NCBI GenBank assembly: GCA_965220215.1
Contig: OZ244809.1
Location: 1,587,805-1,651,804, forward strand
DNA from: Dehalococcoidia bacterium
Lineage (GTDB): Bacteria > Chloroflexota > Dehalococcoidia > SHYD01
Length of the DNA: 64,000 nucleotides
Direction: 5' to 3'
The notes beneath the pieces are model-generated. The model worked only from the letters and a program-made list of their open reading frames with translations. It ran no database searches and was not told the DNA's origin. Both the position numbers and the translations under genes were made by a program. Each line of letters opens with the position of its first letter. Positions within the stretch are counted from its first letter, which is position 1. Shown here piece by piece: positions 16,994 to 58,375 of the stretch.

Positions 16994-17110
16994 TTGTCAT
17001 GCTGAAGGACTCACATCTTGCAAGGACGGAACAATCCACAGTACAGACGCCCACAGTGGATTCTTCGCTTCGCTCAGAATGACAAGGCGTAGGCAGGCTC
17101 AGAATAACAA
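16994..17110. repeat. Family-A palindromic repeat pair (GTCATTCTGAG...GAAGAATC / GATTCTTCG...CTCAGAATGAC)
   Basis: gattcttcgcttcgctcagaatgacaag plus a degenerate inverted partner. Confidence 0.85.
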
Positions 17111-22217: not shown

Positions 22218-22326
22218 TGTCATTCTGAGGGACTCGCCTCTAGCGAGGCCAGAAGAATCCACATAGAGTGCCCGCAGTGGATTCTTCGCTGCACCTGCCT
22301 GCGGTAGGCAGGCTCAGAATGACAAG
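22218..22326. repeat. Family-A inverted pair with nested GCCTGCC hairpin
   Basis: tgtcattctgagg...agaatccac / gtggattcttcg...cctgcctgcggtaggcaggc tcagaatgacaa. Confidence 0.9.
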
Positions 22327-40032: not shown

Positions 40033-40144
40033 TACGAGGAGCTCGCCTTTGGCATGAGTAGCGAAGCAGCCCTTACCGAGAGGGTAGAACGAGTTTGTGG
40101 ATTCTTCAGTCGCTGGGTTCTTTCAGAATGACAGACGTTTAGGA

Positions 40145-46230: not shown

Positions 46231-46412
46231 CTTGTCATTCTGAGCCTGCCTACCGCAGGAAGGCGGAGCGAAGAATCCACTGTGGGCGCTCGTATGGTGG
46301 ATTCTTCCGTCCTCGCCAGGGCGAGTCCTTCAGAATGACAGTGCCGCTGTGCAGGTGCCATTATGTGGCTTCTCTAGTCCTCGCGAGGGGCGAGTCCCTC
46401 AGAGCGACAGTG
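46231..46412. repeat. Family-A inverted pair with nested hairpin
   Basis: cttgtcattctgagcctgcctaccgcagg...gaagaatccac / gtggattcttc...cagaatgaca. Confidence 0.88.
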
Positions 46413-47874: not shown

Positions 47875-49800
<1,926 letters not shown>

Positions 49801-51761: not shown

Positions 51762-52145
51762 CTACCGCCGCTTCACCGCTACCAGCAGCATGGCCCCCAG
51801 CGCAGTGAGCGCTGTGACGGCAAGCTTGGTCTTGTCCACGATGGGCTGCACGGATACTCCCTCCGGGCCAATCACTATGGCCGCCACCGGACGGCTGTGA
51901 CTGAACCCGCCTCCGCCACCTCCGCCGCCCTCTTGGGGCTCCTGTCCCGGCGCGCTCTGGGACCCGCTGCCGTAGCCAAACCCCATTCCCATCATGCCCT
52001 CGCTGGCGGTGATCACGGTGTAGTCGCCGGCGGTCACCGGCGCGCTGAACACTGCCTCGGCCCGCGCCGCTGCAGTCAGCTCTTGCAGCGGCTCTAAGGA
52101 CGGCTCTCCCGTCAAAGTGGCCTAGGTGTCATCTGCTTCAGTCAT
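51762..52145 (-). CDS. GerW/YtfJ-family protein (in-frame TAG at codon 8)
   Basis: VFSAPV..GD.TVI, GFGYG, GGGGGGG..RPVA.I; RBS-preceded ATG at 52145, TAG at 52124-52122. Confidence 0.65.
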
Positions 52146-52157
52146 GAATGTTCTTCC

Positions 52158-52439
52158 TCACTTGTTTCTCTTACTGCTTAATATAGTCATCAGCACAAAT
52201 GCGGCCGCGCAGCCGGCCACCATGCCCACTTGCGTGCGGCTTGTGGCGTCGGAGATGCCTGTGCGTTGGGACGCCTCCCCGCGACGGCGCGTCAGCACCG
52301 CCGTTGGGCGGTTCCACACCAACCCGCCGAAGGGAAGTCTCACTTCAAGCGCGCGGGACTCCAGCGTCAGCGTTGTGTCGCCAATGTCCTGGGATGCAGA
52401 CTCGTGCCGCTCCCAGCGCACTACGTTGCCAAGGTTCAT
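52158..52439 (-). CDS. Small membrane-anchored hypothetical protein
   Basis: AGGAGG RBS; GGLVWNRPTAV; C-terminal TM. Confidence 0.65.
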   Translation of the reverse strand: MNLGNVVRWERHESASQDIGDTTLTLESRALEVRLPFGGLVWNRPTAVLTRRRGEASQRTGISDATSRTQVGMVAGCAAAFVLMTILSSKRNK

Positions 52440-52496
52440 GCTCCCTCCTTCAAGCCGGACTACTTCTATTATCGCGCCGCGCCACGCCGTCCATAT

Positions 52497-52925
52497 CGTT
52501 CTGAGAAGCGGCGTGACGAAGAATCTGAAGCCGCTGGGTGGCCCGGCACGCGCTTGTGTAGATGACCGTCGCTCAAAGTACCACTACACCCAGGAGGAAG
52601 GTGCCCTGCGACAACTGAGGGAGCAGGACAGAGAAGACTTAAGCCGTGAGTGGGACACAGGGGGTGGATTCTTCGCTGCGCTCAGAATGACAAGGAGCGA
52701 GGAATCCAGTACGCTCCGCATTGTTGTCATTCTGAGGAAGGCGCCCTAACGACTGACGAAGAATCCACAAGCCCTCGACGCCCTTTGCTTCGTCAGTCGC
52801 CGGGGGTGACTTCCTCGCAACGACAGGTGATAGCGCCCGGCTTACCCTGCGCCTGCCGCCGCGGGCGAGTCCCTCAGCATGACGTGGGGAGCACGCATGG
52901 GTTTACCCTGAGCCTGCCGAAGGGC
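52497..52925. repeat. Degenerate GIY-YIG/family-A module upstream of murE
   Basis: gaagacttaagccgtgagtgg (3' end of the GIY-YIG gene) followed by gattcttcgctgcgctcagaatgac and an inverted partner. Confidence 0.8.
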
Positions 52926-52937
52926 TATCCTGAGAGC

Positions 52938-54455
52938 ATGACGCAGCCCTTCCCGCCTAAACCCTTGGGGCAGCTCTTGGCCGATGTCCCCATCCGCAGC
53001 CTGCAAGGCGACGCGACGGTTTCTGTTGCCCGCATCACCGCGGATAGCCGCACAATTGGCCCCGGCGACCTCTATGTCGCGCTGCGCGGGGCCACCTTTG
53101 ATGGGCATCAGTTCGTGCCGGAGGCCGTGGCGCGCGGCGCGGCTGCGGTCGTGGTCGGCGAGCCCGTGGACTCGGGCAGCGTCCCCCAGGTTCTCGTCGC
53201 CGATGCTCGCTACGCGCTGGCCCTCATGGCCGCCGCCTTCTATGATCACCCCTCGCGCAAGCTGCGCCTCATCGGCGTCACTGGCACAGACGGCAAGACC
53301 AGCACTACCACCCTCACCGCGGCCATCCTGCGGGCCTCGGGCCGCCGCGTCGCCCACAGCACCACGGTGGAGTTCCACAACGGCGTCACCGCGCGGGCCA
53401 ATCAGGCGGGCTACACCACGCCGCCCGCGCCCGCCATCCAGCGGGAGCTAGCCGATGCCGTGGCCGCGGGTGCGCAAGCCGCCGTGCTGGAGGTGAGCTC
53501 TCACGCTCTGGCTATAGATCGGGTGGCCGGCTGCGAGTTCGATGTGGCGGTGTTCACCAACCTGGCCCGGGAGCACCTGGACTTCCACGCAACCCTGGAG
53601 GAGTACCGGGCGGCCAAGCTCAAGCTCTTTGAGGGTCTGCAGGATCGCCGCACCAAGTCCTGGACGCCCCTGGGCATCGTGAACAGTGACGACGCCTCTG
53701 CCAGCTATTTCAGCGAAGCGTCTCCCGGTGTGGTGCGTTACGGCCTGGACGCCGCCGACCTGGATATCACCGCCCGAGACCTGGTCTGCGGGCCGGAGGG
53801 CTCTCGCTTCACCCTCTCCACACCACAGGGCGAGGCCGTGGTCACGACCCGTCTCCTGGGCCGCTTCAACGTACGCAACTGGCTGGCCGCGGCGGGCGCT
53901 GCCCTGGCCTGCGGCGCTACTCCGGCGGATGTGGCGAAGGCTGCGGAGCAGGTGGCTCCAGTGCCGGGCCGTATGGAACGGGTAGATGCTGGGCAGCCCT
54001 TCTCGGTCTACGTGGACTTTGCTCACACGCCGCAAGGGCTGGCGGCAGCCTTGGACTCGGTGCGGGAGCTGCATCCCGGCGGCCGCAGCATCGCGGTCTT
54101 CGGCCACGCGGGGCGTCGGGACACCGACCACCGCCGCGGGCTGGTGGAGGCTGCGCGGGGCCGCTGCGACCTGTTTATCCTAACCATGGACGACCCCTAC
54201 GACGAGGATCCGATGCTCATCCTGGAGACAATGCGCCGCGAGGCTCTGACTATGGGCTGCGTGGACGGCGCTGACTTCTTGTGTGTCCTCGACCGTCGAG
54301 AGGCATTCCAGCGCGCGCTGGAGCTCGCCAAGCCGGGCGATGCCGTGCTCCTAGCAGGCCGCGGCCATGAGACCACCATCCCCCTAGGCGCCGACACCCT
54401 CCCCTTCCACGACGCGTCCGTGGCTCTGGAACTGCTGTCCACCCCGTCATCCTGA
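52938..54455 (+). CDS. murE: UDP-MurNAc-dipeptide amino acid ligase MurE
   Basis: DSR, DGH, GVTGTDGKTST, EVSSH, FTNL..EHLDFH, VPGRME, DFAHTP, AGRGHE. Confidence 0.9.
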   Translation: MTQPFPPKPLGQLLADVPIRSLQGDATVSVARITADSRTIGPGDLYVALRGATFDGHQFVPEAVARGAAAVVVGEPVDSGSVPQVLVADARYALALMAAAFYDHPSRKLRLIGVTGTDGKTSTTTLTAAILRASGRRVAHSTTVEFHNGVTARANQAGYTTPPAPAIQRELADAVAAGAQAAVLEVSSHALAIDRVAGCEFDVAVFTNLAREHLDFHATLEEYRAAKLKLFEGLQDRRTKSWTPLGIVNSDDASASYFSEASPGVVRYGLDAADLDITARDLVCGPEGSRFTLSTPQGEAVVTTRLLGRFNVRNWLAAAGAALACGATPADVAKAAEQVAPVPGRMERVDAGQPFSVYVDFAHTPQGLAAALDSVRELHPGGRSIAVFGHAGRRDTDHRRGLVEAARGRCDLFILTMDDPYDEDPMLILETMRREALTMGCVDGADFLCVLDRREAFQRALELAKPGDAVLLAGRGHETTIPLGADTLPFHDASVALELLSTPSS

Positions 54456-54585
54456 CGAAGGCGCACTAGCGACTACTGAAGGAGCCATATTGGCAAGACT
54501 TAGCCGTTATTGGGACGCAGCGGGGGTGGATTCTTCGCTGTGCTCAGAATGACAAGGAGTGCGGGAGCCGAGTACACCCCGTGTA

Positions 54586-54970
54586 TTGTCATTCTGAGGA
54601 AGGCGCCCTAGCGACGGACGAAGAATCCACCAGCCCAGTGACGTGCGATGAATACCTACTACGTCTACATCATGACGAACCCGTCACGTACCCTGTACAC
54701 GGGGATAACCAATGACCTCGTGCGGAGGGTGGACCAGCACAAAAGGAAGGTCCTAGAAGGCTTTACCCAACGGTACGACCCGACCAGGCTGGTCTATTAC
54801 GAAGAAACACCGGACGTCCACGTCGCCATTGCGAGGGAGAAGCAGATTAAAGGCTGGCTACGAGCGCGGAAGATTGCGCTGGTAGAATCAATGAACCCGG
54901 ATTGGCAAGACTTAAGCCGTGAGTGGTATGAGGAGGGGGTGGACTCTTCGCGGGGCTCAGAATGACAAGG
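54586..54970 (+). mobile_element. GIY-YIG gene bracketed by inverted family-A palindromes (putative autonomous unit)
   Basis: Left ttgtcattctgagg...gaagaatcc; right ggactcttcgcggggctcagaatgacaa, which contains the gene's stop codon. Confidence 0.6.
54648..54965 (+). CDS. Small GIY-YIG nuclease
   Basis: YYVYIM...LYTGITNDL.RR..QH, LVYYE, AIAREKQIKGW.R..K..L....NP.W.DL. Confidence 0.93.
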   Translation: MNTYYVYIMTNPSRTLYTGITNDLVRRVDQHKRKVLEGFTQRYDPTRLVYYEETPDVHVAIAREKQIKGWLRARKIALVESMNPDWQDLSREWYEEGVDSSRGSE

Positions 54971-55552
54971 AGTGCGGGAGCCGGCACACTCCGTGTTATT
55001 GTCATTCTGAGGAAGGCGCCCTAGCGCCTGACGAAGAATCCAAAAGCCCTGTGACGCGCGATGAATACCTACTACGTCTGCATCGTGACGGCCCGGACGG
55101 GGAAGATTAGACTGTTAGGAGGTGTAGGGGGTGGATTCTTCGCGGGGCTCAGAATAACAAGGAGTGCGGGTGCCGGCACACTCCGTGTTATTGTCATTCT
55201 GAGGAAGGCGCCCTAGCGCCTGACGAAGAATCCAAAAGCCCTGTGACGCGCGATGAATACCTACTACGTCTGCATCGTGACGGCCCGGACGGGGAAGATT
55301 AGACTGTTAGGAGGTGTAGGGGGTGGATTCTTCGCGGGGCTCAGAATAACAAGGAGTGCGGGTGCCGGTACGCCCCATGCTATTGTCATTCTGAGGAAGG
55401 TGCCCTAGCGCCTGACGAAGAATCCAAAAGCCCTGTGACGCGCGATGAATACCAACTACGTCTGCATCGTGACGACCCCGGACGGGGAAGACTTAGACTG
55501 TGAGTGGGACGCAGCGGGGGTGGATTCTTCGCTGTGCTCAGAATGACAAGAG
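54970..55552 (+). repeat. Three 192-bp tandem units, each an internally deleted copy of the GIY-YIG element
   Basis: atgaatacc at 55061, 55253, 55445; each joins the first ~10 codons to the 3' end of the gene between inverted palindromes. Confidence 0.92.
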
Positions 55553-55675
55553 ACGAGGAATCCATCTTCTCAGATTGCGTGCTCCTTCCTTGTGTCGTGG
55601 CTGCCTCTGAAGCTCCGTGCTAGACTGGAGAGACGCCAGTCTTGGGGCTGGCATTGATTCTAGCAAGGGATAAGC

Positions 55676-57571
55676 ATGCTTCAGGTCACCGACCTCAATA
55701 AGGCCTTTGGGGCCGATGATATTCTCCACGGTCTTACGTTCCACATCTCGCCCAGGGACCGCGTAGGACTGGTAGCGGTTAACGGGACGGGGAAGACTAC
55801 GCTGCTGCGCATCATCGCGGGCGAGCTTGCTCCGGACGCCGGGACCGTTGCGGTGCTTAAGGGCGTCCAGGTAGGCTACCTTGCTCAAGAGGGTCAGGGT
55901 ACGCCGGGCAATACGGTGCGAGAGGAGATGCTCAGCGGGCGGCGGGAACTCGTGCAGGTGCAGGCAGAGCTGACCGCGCTCCAAGAGGAGCTGGCGGCGC
56001 TCACGCCCAATGACCCACGGCTGACCGATCTCATCGAGCGCGTCGGCCTGCTGCAGCACCGTTTTGACGGCCTCCGCGGCTACGACGTCGAAACGGAGAT
56101 CGGCATTGTGCTCCACGGTCTGGGGTTCTCTCAACAGGACGCCGACCGGCTTGTGGATACCTTCAGCGGCGGCTGGCAGATGCGTATTGCTTTAGGACGG
56201 TTGCTGCTCCAGCGCCCCGATCTCCTGCTGCTGGACGAGCCGACCAACCACCTGGACATGACCGCAGTGGAGTGGCTGGAATCGTACCTTCGCAGATACC
56301 CCGGTGCGCTCCTGATAGTGAGCCACGACCGCTACATCCTGGACCGGGTAACCACCCGCACGCTGGAACTCAGCAACGGCGTGCTGGAGGAGTACGCTGC
56401 CAATTACAGTGGCTTTGTGATAGAGAAAGCCCGTCGCCAGGAGGTTAAGACACAGGCCTACGAGCGGCAGCAGGAGTATATCGGCCGGACGCAGGAGTGG
56501 ATCGATCGCTTTCACGCCAAAGCCACCAAGGCAAGCCAAGCGAGTGCTCGCCAGCATGCACTGGAACGCTTGGAGCGGGTAGCGGCTCCAGACGCCAATG
56601 ACAAACAGATTGGACTTCGGTTTGATGCCGCGGCCCGTAGCGGCCGGGTGGTGGTGGAAGCGGAGGAGGTGCTCCGTTCCTTCGGCGCTTCTCCCGTGCT
56701 CAATCGAGTCAACCTAATGGTAGAGCGCGGCGACCGCATCGCCTTAGTGGGGCCAAACGGCGCGGGCAAGTCTACCTTGCTCCGTCTGCTGGCCAAGGTG
56801 GACGCGCCGGACGAAGGTGTGGTCAAGCTGGGGCACAACGTCCAGGCTGTATACTTTGCGCAGCATCAGGCGGAGGCGCTGGATCCAGAAAAGACGGTCC
56901 TGGAAGAAGCACTGCAGGGTAACCATCTCCCACAGAGCCAGCTAAGAAACCTCTTAGGGCGGTTTCTGTTCAGCGGGGACGAGGTGTTCAAGCGTGTGGA
57001 AGTGCTTTCCGGAGGGGAACGCAGCCGCCTCGCCTTTGCAAAATTGCTGATGCGCCCCTCAAACCTTCTGTTGCTGGACGAGCCGACCAACCACCTGGAC
57101 ATCCCGTCGCAGGAGGCGCTCGAACAAGCGCTCTTGGACTATCCGGGCGCGATCGTGCTGGCTTCCCACGATCACTATCTCATCGACCGCATTGCCACCA
57201 AAGTAGTCGTCGTTGAGAGCGGCGCTATCGAGCTGCATTTAGGGAACTACACCCAGTATAGAGAGCGGCAGCTTGCACGAGAACGGGCTGAAGCGCAAAC
57301 CCTGGTTGCCGCCGCCCGAGCCCAGAGGAGAGAGGCCTCGCCGGCAAGGGCGCGAGCGGAGACCGCCGCCGCCCGTAAGCGCGTGGGTGACCTAGAGGCC
57401 GCGGTTGCTGCGCTGGAGGCCGAGTTGGCCGAACTGGCGGACCGGCTAGCCCACCCGGACGTTTACGCCGACCACGAGCAGGTGCAGGCGATAACCGCAC
57501 GGCAGCAAGCGTGCACAGAGCAACTGGAAGCCCTGCTGTCGGCATGGGAACAGGCCGCCGCGGAAGTCTGA
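55676..57571 (+). CDS. ABC-F family ATPase (Uup/YheS-like)
   Basis: Two ABC domains (NGTGKTT, FSGGW, LDEPTNHLD; GPNGAGKST, LSGGE), no TM, C-terminal coiled coil. Confidence 0.93.
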   Translation: MLQVTDLNKAFGADDILHGLTFHISPRDRVGLVAVNGTGKTTLLRIIAGELAPDAGTVAVLKGVQVGYLAQEGQGTPGNTVREEMLSGRRELVQVQAELTALQEELAALTPNDPRLTDLIERVGLLQHRFDGLRGYDVETEIGIVLHGLGFSQQDADRLVDTFSGGWQMRIALGRLLLQRPDLLLLDEPTNHLDMTAVEWLESYLRRYPGALLIVSHDRYILDRVTTRTLELSNGVLEEYAANYSGFVIEKARRQEVKTQAYERQQEYIGRTQEWIDRFHAKATKASQASARQHALERLERVAAPDANDKQIGLRFDAAARSGRVVVEAEEVLRSFGASPVLNRVNLMVERGDRIALVGPNGAGKSTLLRLLAKVDAPDEGVVKLGHNVQAVYFAQHQAEALDPEKTVLEEALQGNHLPQSQLRNLLGRFLFSGDEVFKRVEVLSGGERSRLAFAKLLMRPSNLLLLDEPTNHLDIPSQEALEQALLDYPGAIVLASHDHYLIDRIATKVVVVESGAIELHLGNYTQYRERQLARERAEAQTLVAAARAQRREASPARARAETAAARKRVGDLEAAVAALEAELAELADRLAHPDVYADHEQVQAITARQQACTEQLEALLSAWEQAAAEV

Positions 57572-57589
57572 GGGCTAGCGCACTTATAC

Positions 57590-57705
57590 CCGCTCATGGT
57601 GAGCCAGTCGAACCAAGAAGGCTTACGCATAACCGCTCATGGTGAGCTTGTCGAACCAAGGGCGAGCCAGTATGTGTATGGCTCGCCCTTCGATAAACTT
57701 AGGCT
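57590..57705. repeat. Family-C repeat cluster
   Basis: ccgctcatggtgagc...tcgaacc twice plus inverted cccttcgataaacttagg. Confidence 0.85.
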
Positions 57706-57772: not shown

Positions 57773-58375
57773 CTACGCTTCCAAATCCAATAACCTCAAC
57801 GGCACCCTGAACGCTTCAACCATCTGCCTAATTCTTCTCAGCCCAGTACCGCTCTGAGTGAGGATATTCAGCTCTTGTTCACGCTCGTCCGTTGCTCGTC
57901 TCCCTTCAAGGACTTGCTCGAAATAGACCAGCTTGGGATTCTTATTCCGAGTCTGTCCTTGTCGTCCGTCTCTATGTTCTCTTAACCGGATATTCAAGTC
58001 AGTTGTCTGGCCTACATAGTAGGTGTTGTCAGATAGTTTCAAGCAGTAAACATACCGAATAGTGCGCTGAATATCTGCATGGGCAAGTACTGGTTTGTTC
58101 ACCGCCTTTGGCCCCTCCCAAGGAACTGGTCGCCTCTGCTGTTGACAGACCATCCATAGACAATGATCGCAGTAGGGTGGGAACTCTTCAAACCATTCCA
58201 TTTCCCAGTACACGAACATTTCACCGCCGGTGCTGTTGTAGAACTGACGGCAGCGGTTGCACTCTTCTAAATCACCAGCATCCCACTCAAGCCAATGATC
58301 GTAACAGAGCGGCTTATCATAGGTAGCATTCTTATCGCATTCCGAGCGGGCGCAGTGTTGTGTCGCTGTAGTCAC
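57773..58375 (-). CDS. Cys-rich putative Zn-binding domain fused to a C-terminal GIY-YIG nuclease
   Basis: C..C/H clusters then YVYCLKLSDNTYYVGQT.DL..RL.EH; low GC. Confidence 0.75.
   Translation of the reverse strand: MTTATQHCARSECDKNATYDKPLCYDHWLEWDAGDLEECNRCRQFYNSTGGEMFVYWEMEWFEEFPPYCDHCLWMVCQQQRRPVPWEGPKAVNKPVLAHADIQRTIRYVYCLKLSDNTYYVGQTTDLNIRLREHRDGRQGQTRNKNPKLVYFEQVLEGRRATDEREQELNILTQSGTGLRRIRQMVEAFRVPLRLLDLEA

Follow-up and report, generated by a model that had tools for sequence, protein, structure and literature searches.

Short palindromic repeats are common in bacterial genomes and, to our knowledge, only one family of them, the repetitive extragenic palindromic (REP) sequences, has a known dedicated enzyme, the HUH-type REP-associated tyrosine transposase (RAYT). 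Can a nuclease of another fold hold a similar place? The question is raised by a 64,000-nt stretch of the genome of a Dehalococcoidia bacterium (assembly GCA_965220215.1, contig OZ244809.1, positions 1,587,805 to 1,651,804), referred to here as the window, in which a small GIY-YIG nuclease gene stands between inverted hairpins and is followed by a tandem array of internally deleted copies of itself. A reading made from the sequence alone had described this locus as a REP-like system in which the nuclease may propagate the repeat. Our results indicate that the hairpin accompanies homologues of the gene in 16 named phyla. We favour, with reserve, the view that it is a selfish nuclease gene of the Slx1/UPF0213 type, which lives in a REP-like hairpin family, probably cuts there and spreads by break repair.

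Structure of the array locus

The gene lies between murE, which encodes Mur ligase domains, and an ABC-F type ATPase gene (55676-57571). Coordinates without a prefix are positions in the window; the source genome, a single contig of 2.22 Mb, is called G000 and its sister genome G001. The features are as follows, with the evidence in brackets.

52633-52665, plus strand: remnant of the 3' end of the GIY-YIG gene, upstream of murE (repeat families, sequence comparison).
52666-52766, no strand: large hairpin H0, made of a short unit hairpin (+) at 52666-52691, a 34-nt loop and a long unit hairpin (−) at 52726-52766, and followed by a leader remnant that ends near 52783 (fold −53.3 kcal/mol, z −3.8).
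54446-54486, minus strand: degenerate long unit hairpin, containing the last codons and TGA of murE (murE open reading frame (ORF) end, 54455).
54487-54527, plus strand: remnant of the 3' end of the GIY-YIG gene, which with its two adjoining hairpins forms a gene-less element also present in G001 (repeat search, sequence comparison).
54528-54553, plus strand: short unit hairpin (two-box motif scan).
54554-54587, plus strand: 34-nt spacer, the loop of the large hairpin, homologous across all units (sequence comparison).
54588-54628, minus strand: long unit hairpin upstream of the nuclease gene (two-box motif scan).
54629-54647, plus strand: 19-nt leader (sequence comparison).
54648-54965, plus strand: intact GIY-YIG nuclease gene, 105 aa, predicted Slx1/UPF0213 type (ORF list, Pfam, conservation, model).
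54941-54966, plus strand: short unit hairpin with one stem mismatch, giving the nuclease gene its last 8 codons and stop (motif scan).
54967-55158, plus strand: deleted unit 1, made of the spacer, a long hairpin (−) at 55001-55041, a leader and gene remnant at 55042-55132 and a short hairpin (+) at 55133-55158 (Tandem Repeats Finder, repeat search; unitig 55040-55201, 0 differences).
55159-55350, plus strand: deleted unit 2, 98% identical to unit 1, with a long hairpin (−) at 55193-55233, a remnant at 55234-55324 and a short hairpin (+) at 55325-55350 (unitig 55232-55347 in runs X2 and X3).
55351-55547, plus strand: deleted unit 3, 83% identical to unit 1, with a long hairpin (−) at 55385-55425, a remnant at 55426-55521 and a short hairpin (+) at 55522-55547 (unitigs 55318-55431 and 55424-55534).

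Between the upstream hairpin, which reaches to 54628, and the ATG lie 19 nt, and the TGA (54963-54965) falls within the inverted hairpin copy downstream, as the sequence-only reading had proposed for a 105-aa gene that starts about 20 nt after one palindrome and takes its stop codon from the inverted one. The inverted repeats that it called palindromes do exist, but each of them is an inverted pair of smaller unit hairpins, a short one of 26 nt and a long one of 41 nt. Tandem Repeats Finder gave a period of 192 with 3.2 copies and 94% matches for 54934-55550, and a repeat search of the window gave start-to-start spacings of 413, 192 and 192 nt. A block of 117 nt occurs in five copies (starts 52659, 54521, 54934, 55126 and 55318), and all five are long imperfect hairpins (−53 to −64 kcal/mol, z −3.5 to −5.5 against shuffles).

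All three 192-nt units retain both ends of the gene, 10-11 codons at its start and the last codons at its close, together with the 19-nt leader and the 34-nt spacer. They join at the word GAACCCG, and since this word stands at two sites in the intact gene (54677-54683 and 54893-54899), 216 nt are absent from the units. The remnants are frame-shifted in units 1 and 2, and that of unit 3 is an in-frame mini-ORF of 33 codons. The three 192-bp units bearing gene ends and palindromes, the join at AACCCG (54678 and 54894, 216 nt apart), the drop in period from 413 to 192 and the 3'-end remnants near 54490 and 52633 had all been reported from the sequence, and they are borne out here.

The housekeeping gene murE ends inside the decayed hairpin 54446-54486 in G000 and G001 alike, and owes its end to the repeat.

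The array in short-read data

The array was compared with unitigs from public short-read runs of two studies, among which run X1 may be the source sample. The gene and both flanks (54528-55009) are matched with 0 differences in X1, and unitigs with no or few differences cover 55040-55201 (the unit 1 joint), 55232-55347, 55318-55431 and 55424-55534, while the exit of the array to unique DNA (55521-56000) is found in records of four runs. No single record among the unitigs compared spans the whole array, so that the unit types are confirmed and the copy number of three is not. Joints that skip part of the locus at 90% likeness (e.g. from 54564 to 55516 in X2) may derive from relatives or other loci and were kept out of the interpretation; bins with no unitig cover carry no information.

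The earlier reading had named an assembly artefact as a danger. No contig or read crosses the array, and units 1 and 2 are 98% alike, as would suit the mis-assembly of a repeat, but unit-specific junctions and variants recur in unitigs from runs of two studies, unit 3 is merely 83% identical to unit 1 and connects the array with unique downstream DNA, and comparable arrays are present in other assemblies. Mis-assembly is therefore scarcely credible as the origin of the units and joints, which the unitigs reproduce, and the caution holds for the copy number.

The unit hairpin

The motif consists of two boxes, GGATTCTTC and TCAGAATGAC, separated by a spacer of 7-23 nt, and occurs in 80 copies in G000, against 0, 0, 1, 0 and 0 copies in five genome shuffles. 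In homologous loci the paired boxes change from ATTCT/AGAAT to ATGCT/AGCAT, ACTCT/AGAGT or ATTCC/GGAAT; because both boxes vary together, each apparent half-site is itself a hairpin. Its frame, in a unit of 25-45 nt overall, is G-[5-bp stem 1]-TC-[stem 2 and loop]-TC-[stem 1']-GAC. The short form measures 26 nt and the long forms, with an extra small hairpin in the spacer, 32-42 nt; the large hairpins of the array locus and H0 are composed of a short form (+), a 34-nt loop and a long form (−).

Stem 1 was examined in 39 sequences picked by the frame and a fixed stem 2 only, 38 of them distinct sequences from the 79 cross-phylum loci described below and one from the window. Pairing is found in 96.3% of the cells, compared with 23-46% when the partner is slid, and changes on both sides occur in 37 cells, compared with 8.7 ± 3.6 in shuffles (0 of 500 reach 37), and in 4 of the 5 stem-1 pairs. 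For stem 2, the sequences were picked by a perfect stem 1 only; of 44 distinct ones, 42 form both base pairs, and several types of pair occur. The unit hairpin is real, with two covarying stems and a frame that hardly varies.

A scan of G000 with this frame found 92 hairpins, 80 of them with the stem ATTCT, and 9 with a decoy in which the stem was reversed and left uncomplemented. Hairpins with the stem ATTCT, ATTGC or ATGCT number 85, and 70 of them are outside crude ORFs, in a genome of which 87% is in such ORFs. The commonest close pair is a (−) followed by a (+) hairpin within 60 nt (12 cases), a doublet of about 86 nt with GTCATTC... words as its outer ends, and the nuclease gene occupies the position of the ~20-nt apex of such a doublet.

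Two covarying stems, an intergenic position and, in most loci, a hairpin 5-70 nt ahead of the start codon are also features of elements that act in RNA, where they might end or stabilise transcripts or regulate translation of the nuclease. Such a role is very improbable, given that Rfam gave 0 matches in 52000-56000 at E up to 1, that no T run follows the hairpins at the locus, that the hairpins occur in both orientations, inverted pairs, tandem arrays and nested forms, as is typical of DNA repeats, and that there are up to hundreds of copies per genome.

Other unit hairpins in the window lie at 16996-17083, 22219-22260, 40099-40132, 46299-46339 and 49683-49796; a doublet, a tandem pair of long forms and three long forms on their own make up this set, and no GIY-YIG gene is nearby. 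Elsewhere in G000 (C1:1765374-1768388 and 1761399-1761705; locus L159) there are same-orientation arrays of short hairpins with periods of about 44 and 140 nt. Among these hairpins stand members of two further repeat families, one of the GGTTCGAC..CATGAGCGG type and the other a CCCTCTCC..GGAGAGGG hairpin; the copy number there is different in G001.

Linkage of the gene and the hairpin

Among 601 candidate stretches of a collection of species genomes, 569 relatives of the nuclease were confirmed, and the locus counts given here refer to the best 79, which come from 16 named phyla and show 55-73% protein identity. In 71 of the 79 loci the gene has at least one hairpin beside it, in the 200 nt upstream or the 150 nt downstream; 48 have hairpins on both sides, with the same stem on the two sides in 35 of these. 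The most frequent layout is (−) upstream and (+) downstream (24/79), and the median gap between gene and hairpin is 41 nt upstream and 36 nt downstream. Hairpin density reaches 5.65 per kb beside the gene and 0.29 per kb over the remaining sequence of the loci, a 20-fold enrichment, and a decoy motif gave 4 matches in total across the 79 loci. In several unrelated homologues the reading frame ends in the hairpin in the same phase, and near-identical 25-mers in distant phyla accompany a protein of 55-73% identity.

On the protein tree, phylum labels change 29 times (minimum 15; shuffles 41-46); this number and the identity between phyla both fit horizontal spread. For the type of flanking stem, the numbers of changes are 25 (shuffle mean 30.4) and 26 (33.0), with 0 of 500 shuffles as low, and flank stem types track the protein tree slightly better than chance. 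Arrays of hairpin units, built from the 3' flank and the 5' flank of the gene, stand beside it in L070, L116, L078, L048, L157, L062 and L054, which makes a gene in one slot of a hairpin array a recurrent architecture. Tandem copies of the gene are found in G197, G152, G109 and G207.

The genome census took the canonical stem in its short form only. Among 41 genomes of the same class, the hairpin was present in 17 and the gene in 21 (both 13, hairpin only 4, gene only 8, neither 16; odds ratio 6.5, Fisher p 0.011), and among 301 genomes of the phylum that are at least 90% complete, in 34 and 84 (both 23, hairpin only 11, gene only 61, neither 206; odds ratio 7.1, Fisher p 3e-7). These p-values are overstated because kin are not independent, and the link is understated because of the form scanned; G004, for example, counts as a genome with the gene only, yet has ATGCT-type hairpins around its gene. 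In G335, 8 of the 10 hairpin copies are in an array beside the gene.

The window holds a second GIY-YIG protein (57773-58375, minus strand, 200 aa, with a Cys-rich N-terminal half), and its gene is followed by two copies of a different repeat, GGTTCGAC..CTCACCATGAGCGG, at 57588-57655. In G001, a UPF0213-like GIY-YIG gene (C2:636383-636640) has the same GGTTCGAC..CTCACCATGAGCGG repeat on both sides. Distinct GIY-YIG clades may each have a repeat family of their own.

The nuclease

The protein matches the Pfam GIY-YIG family PF01541 over residues 4-75 (63 bits against a cut-off of 22.6, E 3.2e-17). In 29 homologues with 62-90% identity to the window protein, Y7, Y17, G19, R27, E64 and N83 do not vary, and conservation of H31 is 90% or more. 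The active-site set of Tyr-Tyr-Gly, Arg and Glu is present as Y7, Y17, G19, R27 and E64, which we take to be equivalent to the active-site residues of I-TevI. The conserved core comprises residues 1-93, with an extra conserved C-terminal helix region (K68-W93) in this clade; past W93 the tails are variable, and several are translated hairpin. In the parts of the superfamily survey that treat these features, conserved Tyr-Tyr-Gly, Arg and Glu are given as those of the GIY-YIG active site, and the Slx1/UPF0213 branch is described as having no C-terminal catalytic Asn (Dunin-Horkawicz et al. 2006, PMC1564403). The invariant N83 may or may not be the counterpart of the Asn of UvrC and I-TevI.

By sequence, the sole solved relative is UPF0213 protein BH0048 (1ZG2; phmmer E 5.4e-5). 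The AlphaFold model (predicted local distance difference test, pLDDT, 85.5; residues 97-105 disordered) has 1ZG2 as its nearest fold (Foldseek E 5e-5), then Slx1 structures, EF2693, At-HIGLE and the UvrC N-terminal domain, and ranks 1-10 are UPF0213 and Slx1 entries. With 1ZG2 best by sequence and fold and Slx1 next by fold, the window protein is predicted to be a minimal stand-alone nuclease of the Slx1/UPF0213 branch. According to PDB entry titles and abstracts, branched-DNA cutting is the activity of the characterised members of this branch. NCBIfam has no family for the nuclease and PHROGs gave none, and a reading as a defence system was dropped, PADLOC having given only a partial match of 13.9 bits.

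Translated hairpins are also seen as N-terminal extensions or tails in public predicted proteins (P0007, P0008, P0066, P0109 and P0042), which indicates that gene callers over-extend ORFs through the repeats. In practical terms, murE and the nuclease gene, both real genes, take their stop codons and tails from hairpins, and predicted proteins gain spurious ends from them.

Other enzymes in the hairpin-bearing genomes

With one nuclease gene set between inverted hairpins of a dispersed family, the layout is like that of REP/RAYT systems, as had been noted from the sequence. The best match to the Y1 HUH family PF01797 in G000 has 19.8 bits, below the 23-bit cut-off, and G014, which has 85 hairpins, gave none, so that a RAYT reading was dropped for both genomes. 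DDE_Tnp_1 (PF01609), rve (PF00665) and the TnpB type (PF07282), the only other transposase families searched, had no match in G000; within that range, the earlier statement that there is no transposase is upheld. Only two tyrosine recombinases (frames of 323 and 309 aa) are encoded in G000, neither at the array locus. Integron cassettes were considered and set aside, as there is no integrase at the locus and the hairpins are inverted rather than in the same orientation as attC sites would be (the attC consensus itself was not scanned). Two hairpin doublets stand just upstream of a tyrosine-recombinase gene (match 387878-388351; G000:C1:386839-388351), which may be coincidence.

If the GIY-YIG protein were a dedicated enzyme that cut out or copied the hairpins and placed them elsewhere, the dispersed hairpins would be its non-autonomous elements. 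The RAYT-like layout, the 12 close (−,+) doublets and the 70 of 85 hairpins outside ORFs speak for it, as do the outcome of the transposase and recombinase searches, the odds ratios of 6.5 and 7.1, the flank stem types that follow the protein tree beyond chance and the different repeat family adjoining another GIY-YIG clade in G001 and the window. However, the only GIY-YIG enzymes we know of are hydrolytic nucleases, and we know of no strand-transfer chemistry among them. Four of the hairpin-richest genomes gave no match to the gene, the flanks of the gene in G334 are unlike the dispersed family there, no consistent target-site duplication surrounds the hairpin doublets, and the transposase scan of G000 took selected families only. 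Insertion by the nuclease itself is thus unlikely.

Gain, loss and local duplication

G001 is about 93% identical to G000 here, and at the array site it has just one element, which lacks the gene: a long hairpin in degenerate form comes first, then 39 nt left over from the 3' end of the gene, then a short hairpin. G000 is 994 nt longer at this site, and the difference is bounded by 77-nt direct repeats (54480-54556 and 55474-55550). The comparison of empty and filled sites that the sequence-only reading had called for therefore yields a gene-less relative, but not a direction of change: there is no outgroup, and as G001 keeps a 3'-end remnant, loss is as likely as gain. A 363-nt block upstream of murE (52484-52846), which contains H0, is also missing in G001. 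Over about 400 kb of the two genomes there are many indels at repeat arrays, none of them polarisable without an outgroup, and no clean insertion of a single hairpin.

Two gene copies in G300 are alike from hairpin to hairpin and not beyond, and in L087 a second copy, 1.4 kb away, is 100% identical over 427 nt. G000 also has a decayed second nuclease copy (C1:715617-715866; L160), in which the 5' third is absent and the frame is shifted, with stops; an ATGCT-type long hairpin precedes it and none was seen after it.

The leader and coding remnants of the deleted units were found nowhere else in G000 or in 400 kb of G001. Being confined to the array locus, the units are local tandem duplicates, not dispersed non-autonomous elements or miniature inverted-repeat transposable elements (MITEs), and a reading of them as a dispersed REP/MITE-like family has to be given up. 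The dispersed family is the bare hairpin.

A host gene has undergone a similar change. Between two hairpin doublets of G000 (C1:1377880-1378021; L158) lies an internally deleted copy, 142 nt long, of a Rieske-type (ferredoxin) gene, in which the upstream flank and the first ~70 nt (78% identity) are joined to the last 42 nt (86%). The intact Rieske gene is 5 kb away, where there are two intact tandem paralogues, and a 180-nt array after the gene repeats its last ~25 nt together with a doublet; the locus also takes in C1:1383458-1384250. To judge by these alignments, the hairpin-flanked internal deletion is shared with the Rieske gene and not unique to the nuclease.

This copy and its array are what one would expect if the hairpins were independent REP-like repeats, spread by host processes or another enzyme and promoting local recombination, with the GIY-YIG gene merely caught between them and the array produced by unequal recombination or slippage. 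Abundant hairpins in genomes with no copy of the gene, the strictly local deleted GIY-YIG units and the arrays away from any GIY-YIG gene (e.g. G000:C1:1765374-1768388) point the same way. A passive neighbourhood of this kind is nevertheless improbable in view of the 20-fold enrichment beside one gene family, in 71 of 79 loci and 16 phyla, with a preferred orientation. Nor would it lead us to expect unrelated homologues whose reading frames end in the hairpin in the same phase, duplicated gene copies bounded by hairpins, or near-identical 25-mers that travel with a 55-73%-identical protein in distant phyla.

Proposed mechanism

Starting from the anatomy, the covariation, the linkage and the polymorphism between sister species, we return to the selfish nuclease gene as the preferred reading. 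The array locus would be one active-looking copy of a widespread unit, a nuclease gene with a core of about 93 aa between inverted hairpins, an identification that we make with comparable reserve. The nuclease would recognise the hairpin, or the cruciform or branched DNA extruded by inverted hairpin pairs, and cut there; cutting at doublets is proposed because branched DNA is what the protein's relatives cut, and a doublet of inverted hairpins can extrude structures of that kind. As a hydrolytic nuclease, it could spread only via host repair. The break would be healed by copying from another hairpin-flanked copy, in a homing-like manner or by synthesis-dependent strand annealing, and this copying would move the gene into other hairpin doublets, together with any DNA that lies between hairpins. 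The end-keeping Rieske copy is what would be expected if inter-hairpin DNA were copied, and sometimes truncated.

The 192-nt units may then be by-products, formed when interrupted repair or a template switch at GAACCCG caused the loss of 216 nt and the remnant was then duplicated in tandem, as repair ran unequally from one hairpin copy to another. A similar origin applies to P and Ac/Ds elements with internal deletions. The ~85 dispersed hairpins would form a REP/REPIN-like family, whose members act as landing pads for the unit and as arms of homology.

Several observations weigh against a selfish nuclease gene of this kind. The protein of 105 aa has no separate DNA-binding domain. The mechanism leaves the arrival of hairpins at new sites unexplained, and likewise the hundreds of hairpins in gene-less genomes: the hairpin-rich G202 (522), G137 (174), G249 (97) and G234 (69) have no match to the nuclease, and the GIY-YIG Pfam domain is found in G202, G249 and G234 only in frames of 645-730 aa (UvrC-sized), and in G137 also in one weak frame of 140 aa. 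Hairpins can therefore persist or multiply in the absence of the gene, and the association of this GIY-YIG clade with the repeat, on which the sequence-only reading had made its case depend, stands for 71 of the 79 loci and in both odds ratios but fails in these four genomes. The canonical short form, the one scanned for, is absent in 61 of the 84 gene-carrying genomes, and kinship inflates the association statistics. In G334, the dispersed hairpins, 58 in number, are of the ATTCT type; short hairpins of the ATTCC type occur in this genome just twice, as the flanks of the gene. The difference between G000 and G001 has no outgroup and could be explained by gain or loss.

More distant clades of about 47% identity (G017, G197, G152, G109 and G207) are mostly devoid of hairpins under the strict definition. 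The G017 copies have a variant perfect hairpin on both sides, within a larger element with terminal inverted repeats of its own, which is a further point on the same side. This genome (L138-L147) has 25 nuclease matches, partly decayed; in-frame stops are present in many of them, and many fall at the ends of contigs. Where a copy is complete, the unit measures ~560 nt, with inverted repeats of ~28 nt as its outer ends and the variant hairpins inside them; the flanking duplications, a perfect one of 8 bp in L145 and imperfect ones in L140 and L142, are too few for a target duplication. The G017 unit looks like a proliferating element, with the GIY-YIG gene as its only predicted ORF.

Comparison with known systems

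The gene-hairpin unit looks like a repeat-associated selfish nuclease gene that is apparently undescribed. Full-text searches, whose coverage left out most subscription journals, returned no literature on small GIY-YIG genes tied to flanking hairpin repeats; some of the hits were papers on restriction enzymes, none concerned with repeats as far as title and start of abstract show. The section on Slx1-like proteins (section 11) of the superfamily survey does not mention flanking repeats; in the portions concerned, the survey treats prokaryotic Slx1-like proteins as minimal, ancient, vertically inherited nucleases of a repair type and records one GIY-YIG domain recently inserted in an HsdR gene (PMC1564403).

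Like MITEs and their parent insertion sequences, the system comprises a coding element with inverted ends and shorter copies that keep those ends, with the deletion at a microhomology. Unlike them, it has no transposase among the selected families searched and no target duplication, and its deleted copies are tandem and local. Proteins of the Slx1/UPF0213 type (YhbQ-like) share with the window protein a minimal single domain and are its best sequence and fold matches (1ZG2, 1YWL and Slx1), whereas the conserved C-terminal helix region K68-W93 is extra here. If the nuclease acts on the hairpins, stand-alone bacterial Slx1/UPF0213 proteins would gain a function.

Free-standing GIY-YIG homing endonuclease genes of the I-TevI type resemble the present gene in being polymorphic in presence among close relatives (for the gene-less G001 site, by loss as likely as by gain), in a spread explicable by cleavage and repair, and in truncated copies explicable by abortive repair. 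Unlike that type, the 105-aa protein described here consists of one Pfam domain only, with no DNA-binding or NUMOD module, its gene lies outside any intron or phage, and its putative target is a repeated hairpin rather than a unique allele. Its structural neighbours belong to the Slx1/UPF0213 branch, not to the branch of homing endonucleases and UvrC, in the classes outlined in the survey (PMC1564403).

A close likeness is to REP/REPIN sequences and their RAYTs. There too, a nuclease gene in single copy stands between short palindromic repeats in inverted orientation, the repeat is dispersed, mostly between genes, in tens to hundreds of copies that are often inverted doublets, and the repeats outlive the gene. 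The REP/RAYT enzyme is of the HUH (Y1) type, whereas the enzyme here is a GIY-YIG hydrolytic nuclease. RAYT families are mostly lineage-bound, unlike the same hairpin sequence and 55-73%-identical protein found here over 16 phyla. It is conceivable, though doubtful, that these units form a cross-phylum class of mobile elements in which a Slx1-like GIY-YIG nuclease is the sole protein and a covarying hairpin the cis site, a GIY-YIG counterpart of REP/RAYT spread by structure-specific cutting and host repair, and the origin of the hairpin family, which many bacterial genomes hold in tens to hundreds of copies. If the nuclease does act on the hairpins, the origin of a very widespread repeat would be explained, and nuclease-only, repair-driven spread would be added to the kinds of prokaryotic mobile DNA. 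In at least 16 phyla, a hairpin family is here linked physically with a nuclease whose fold is unrelated to that of the HUH enzymes of REP systems, the second fold in such a position.

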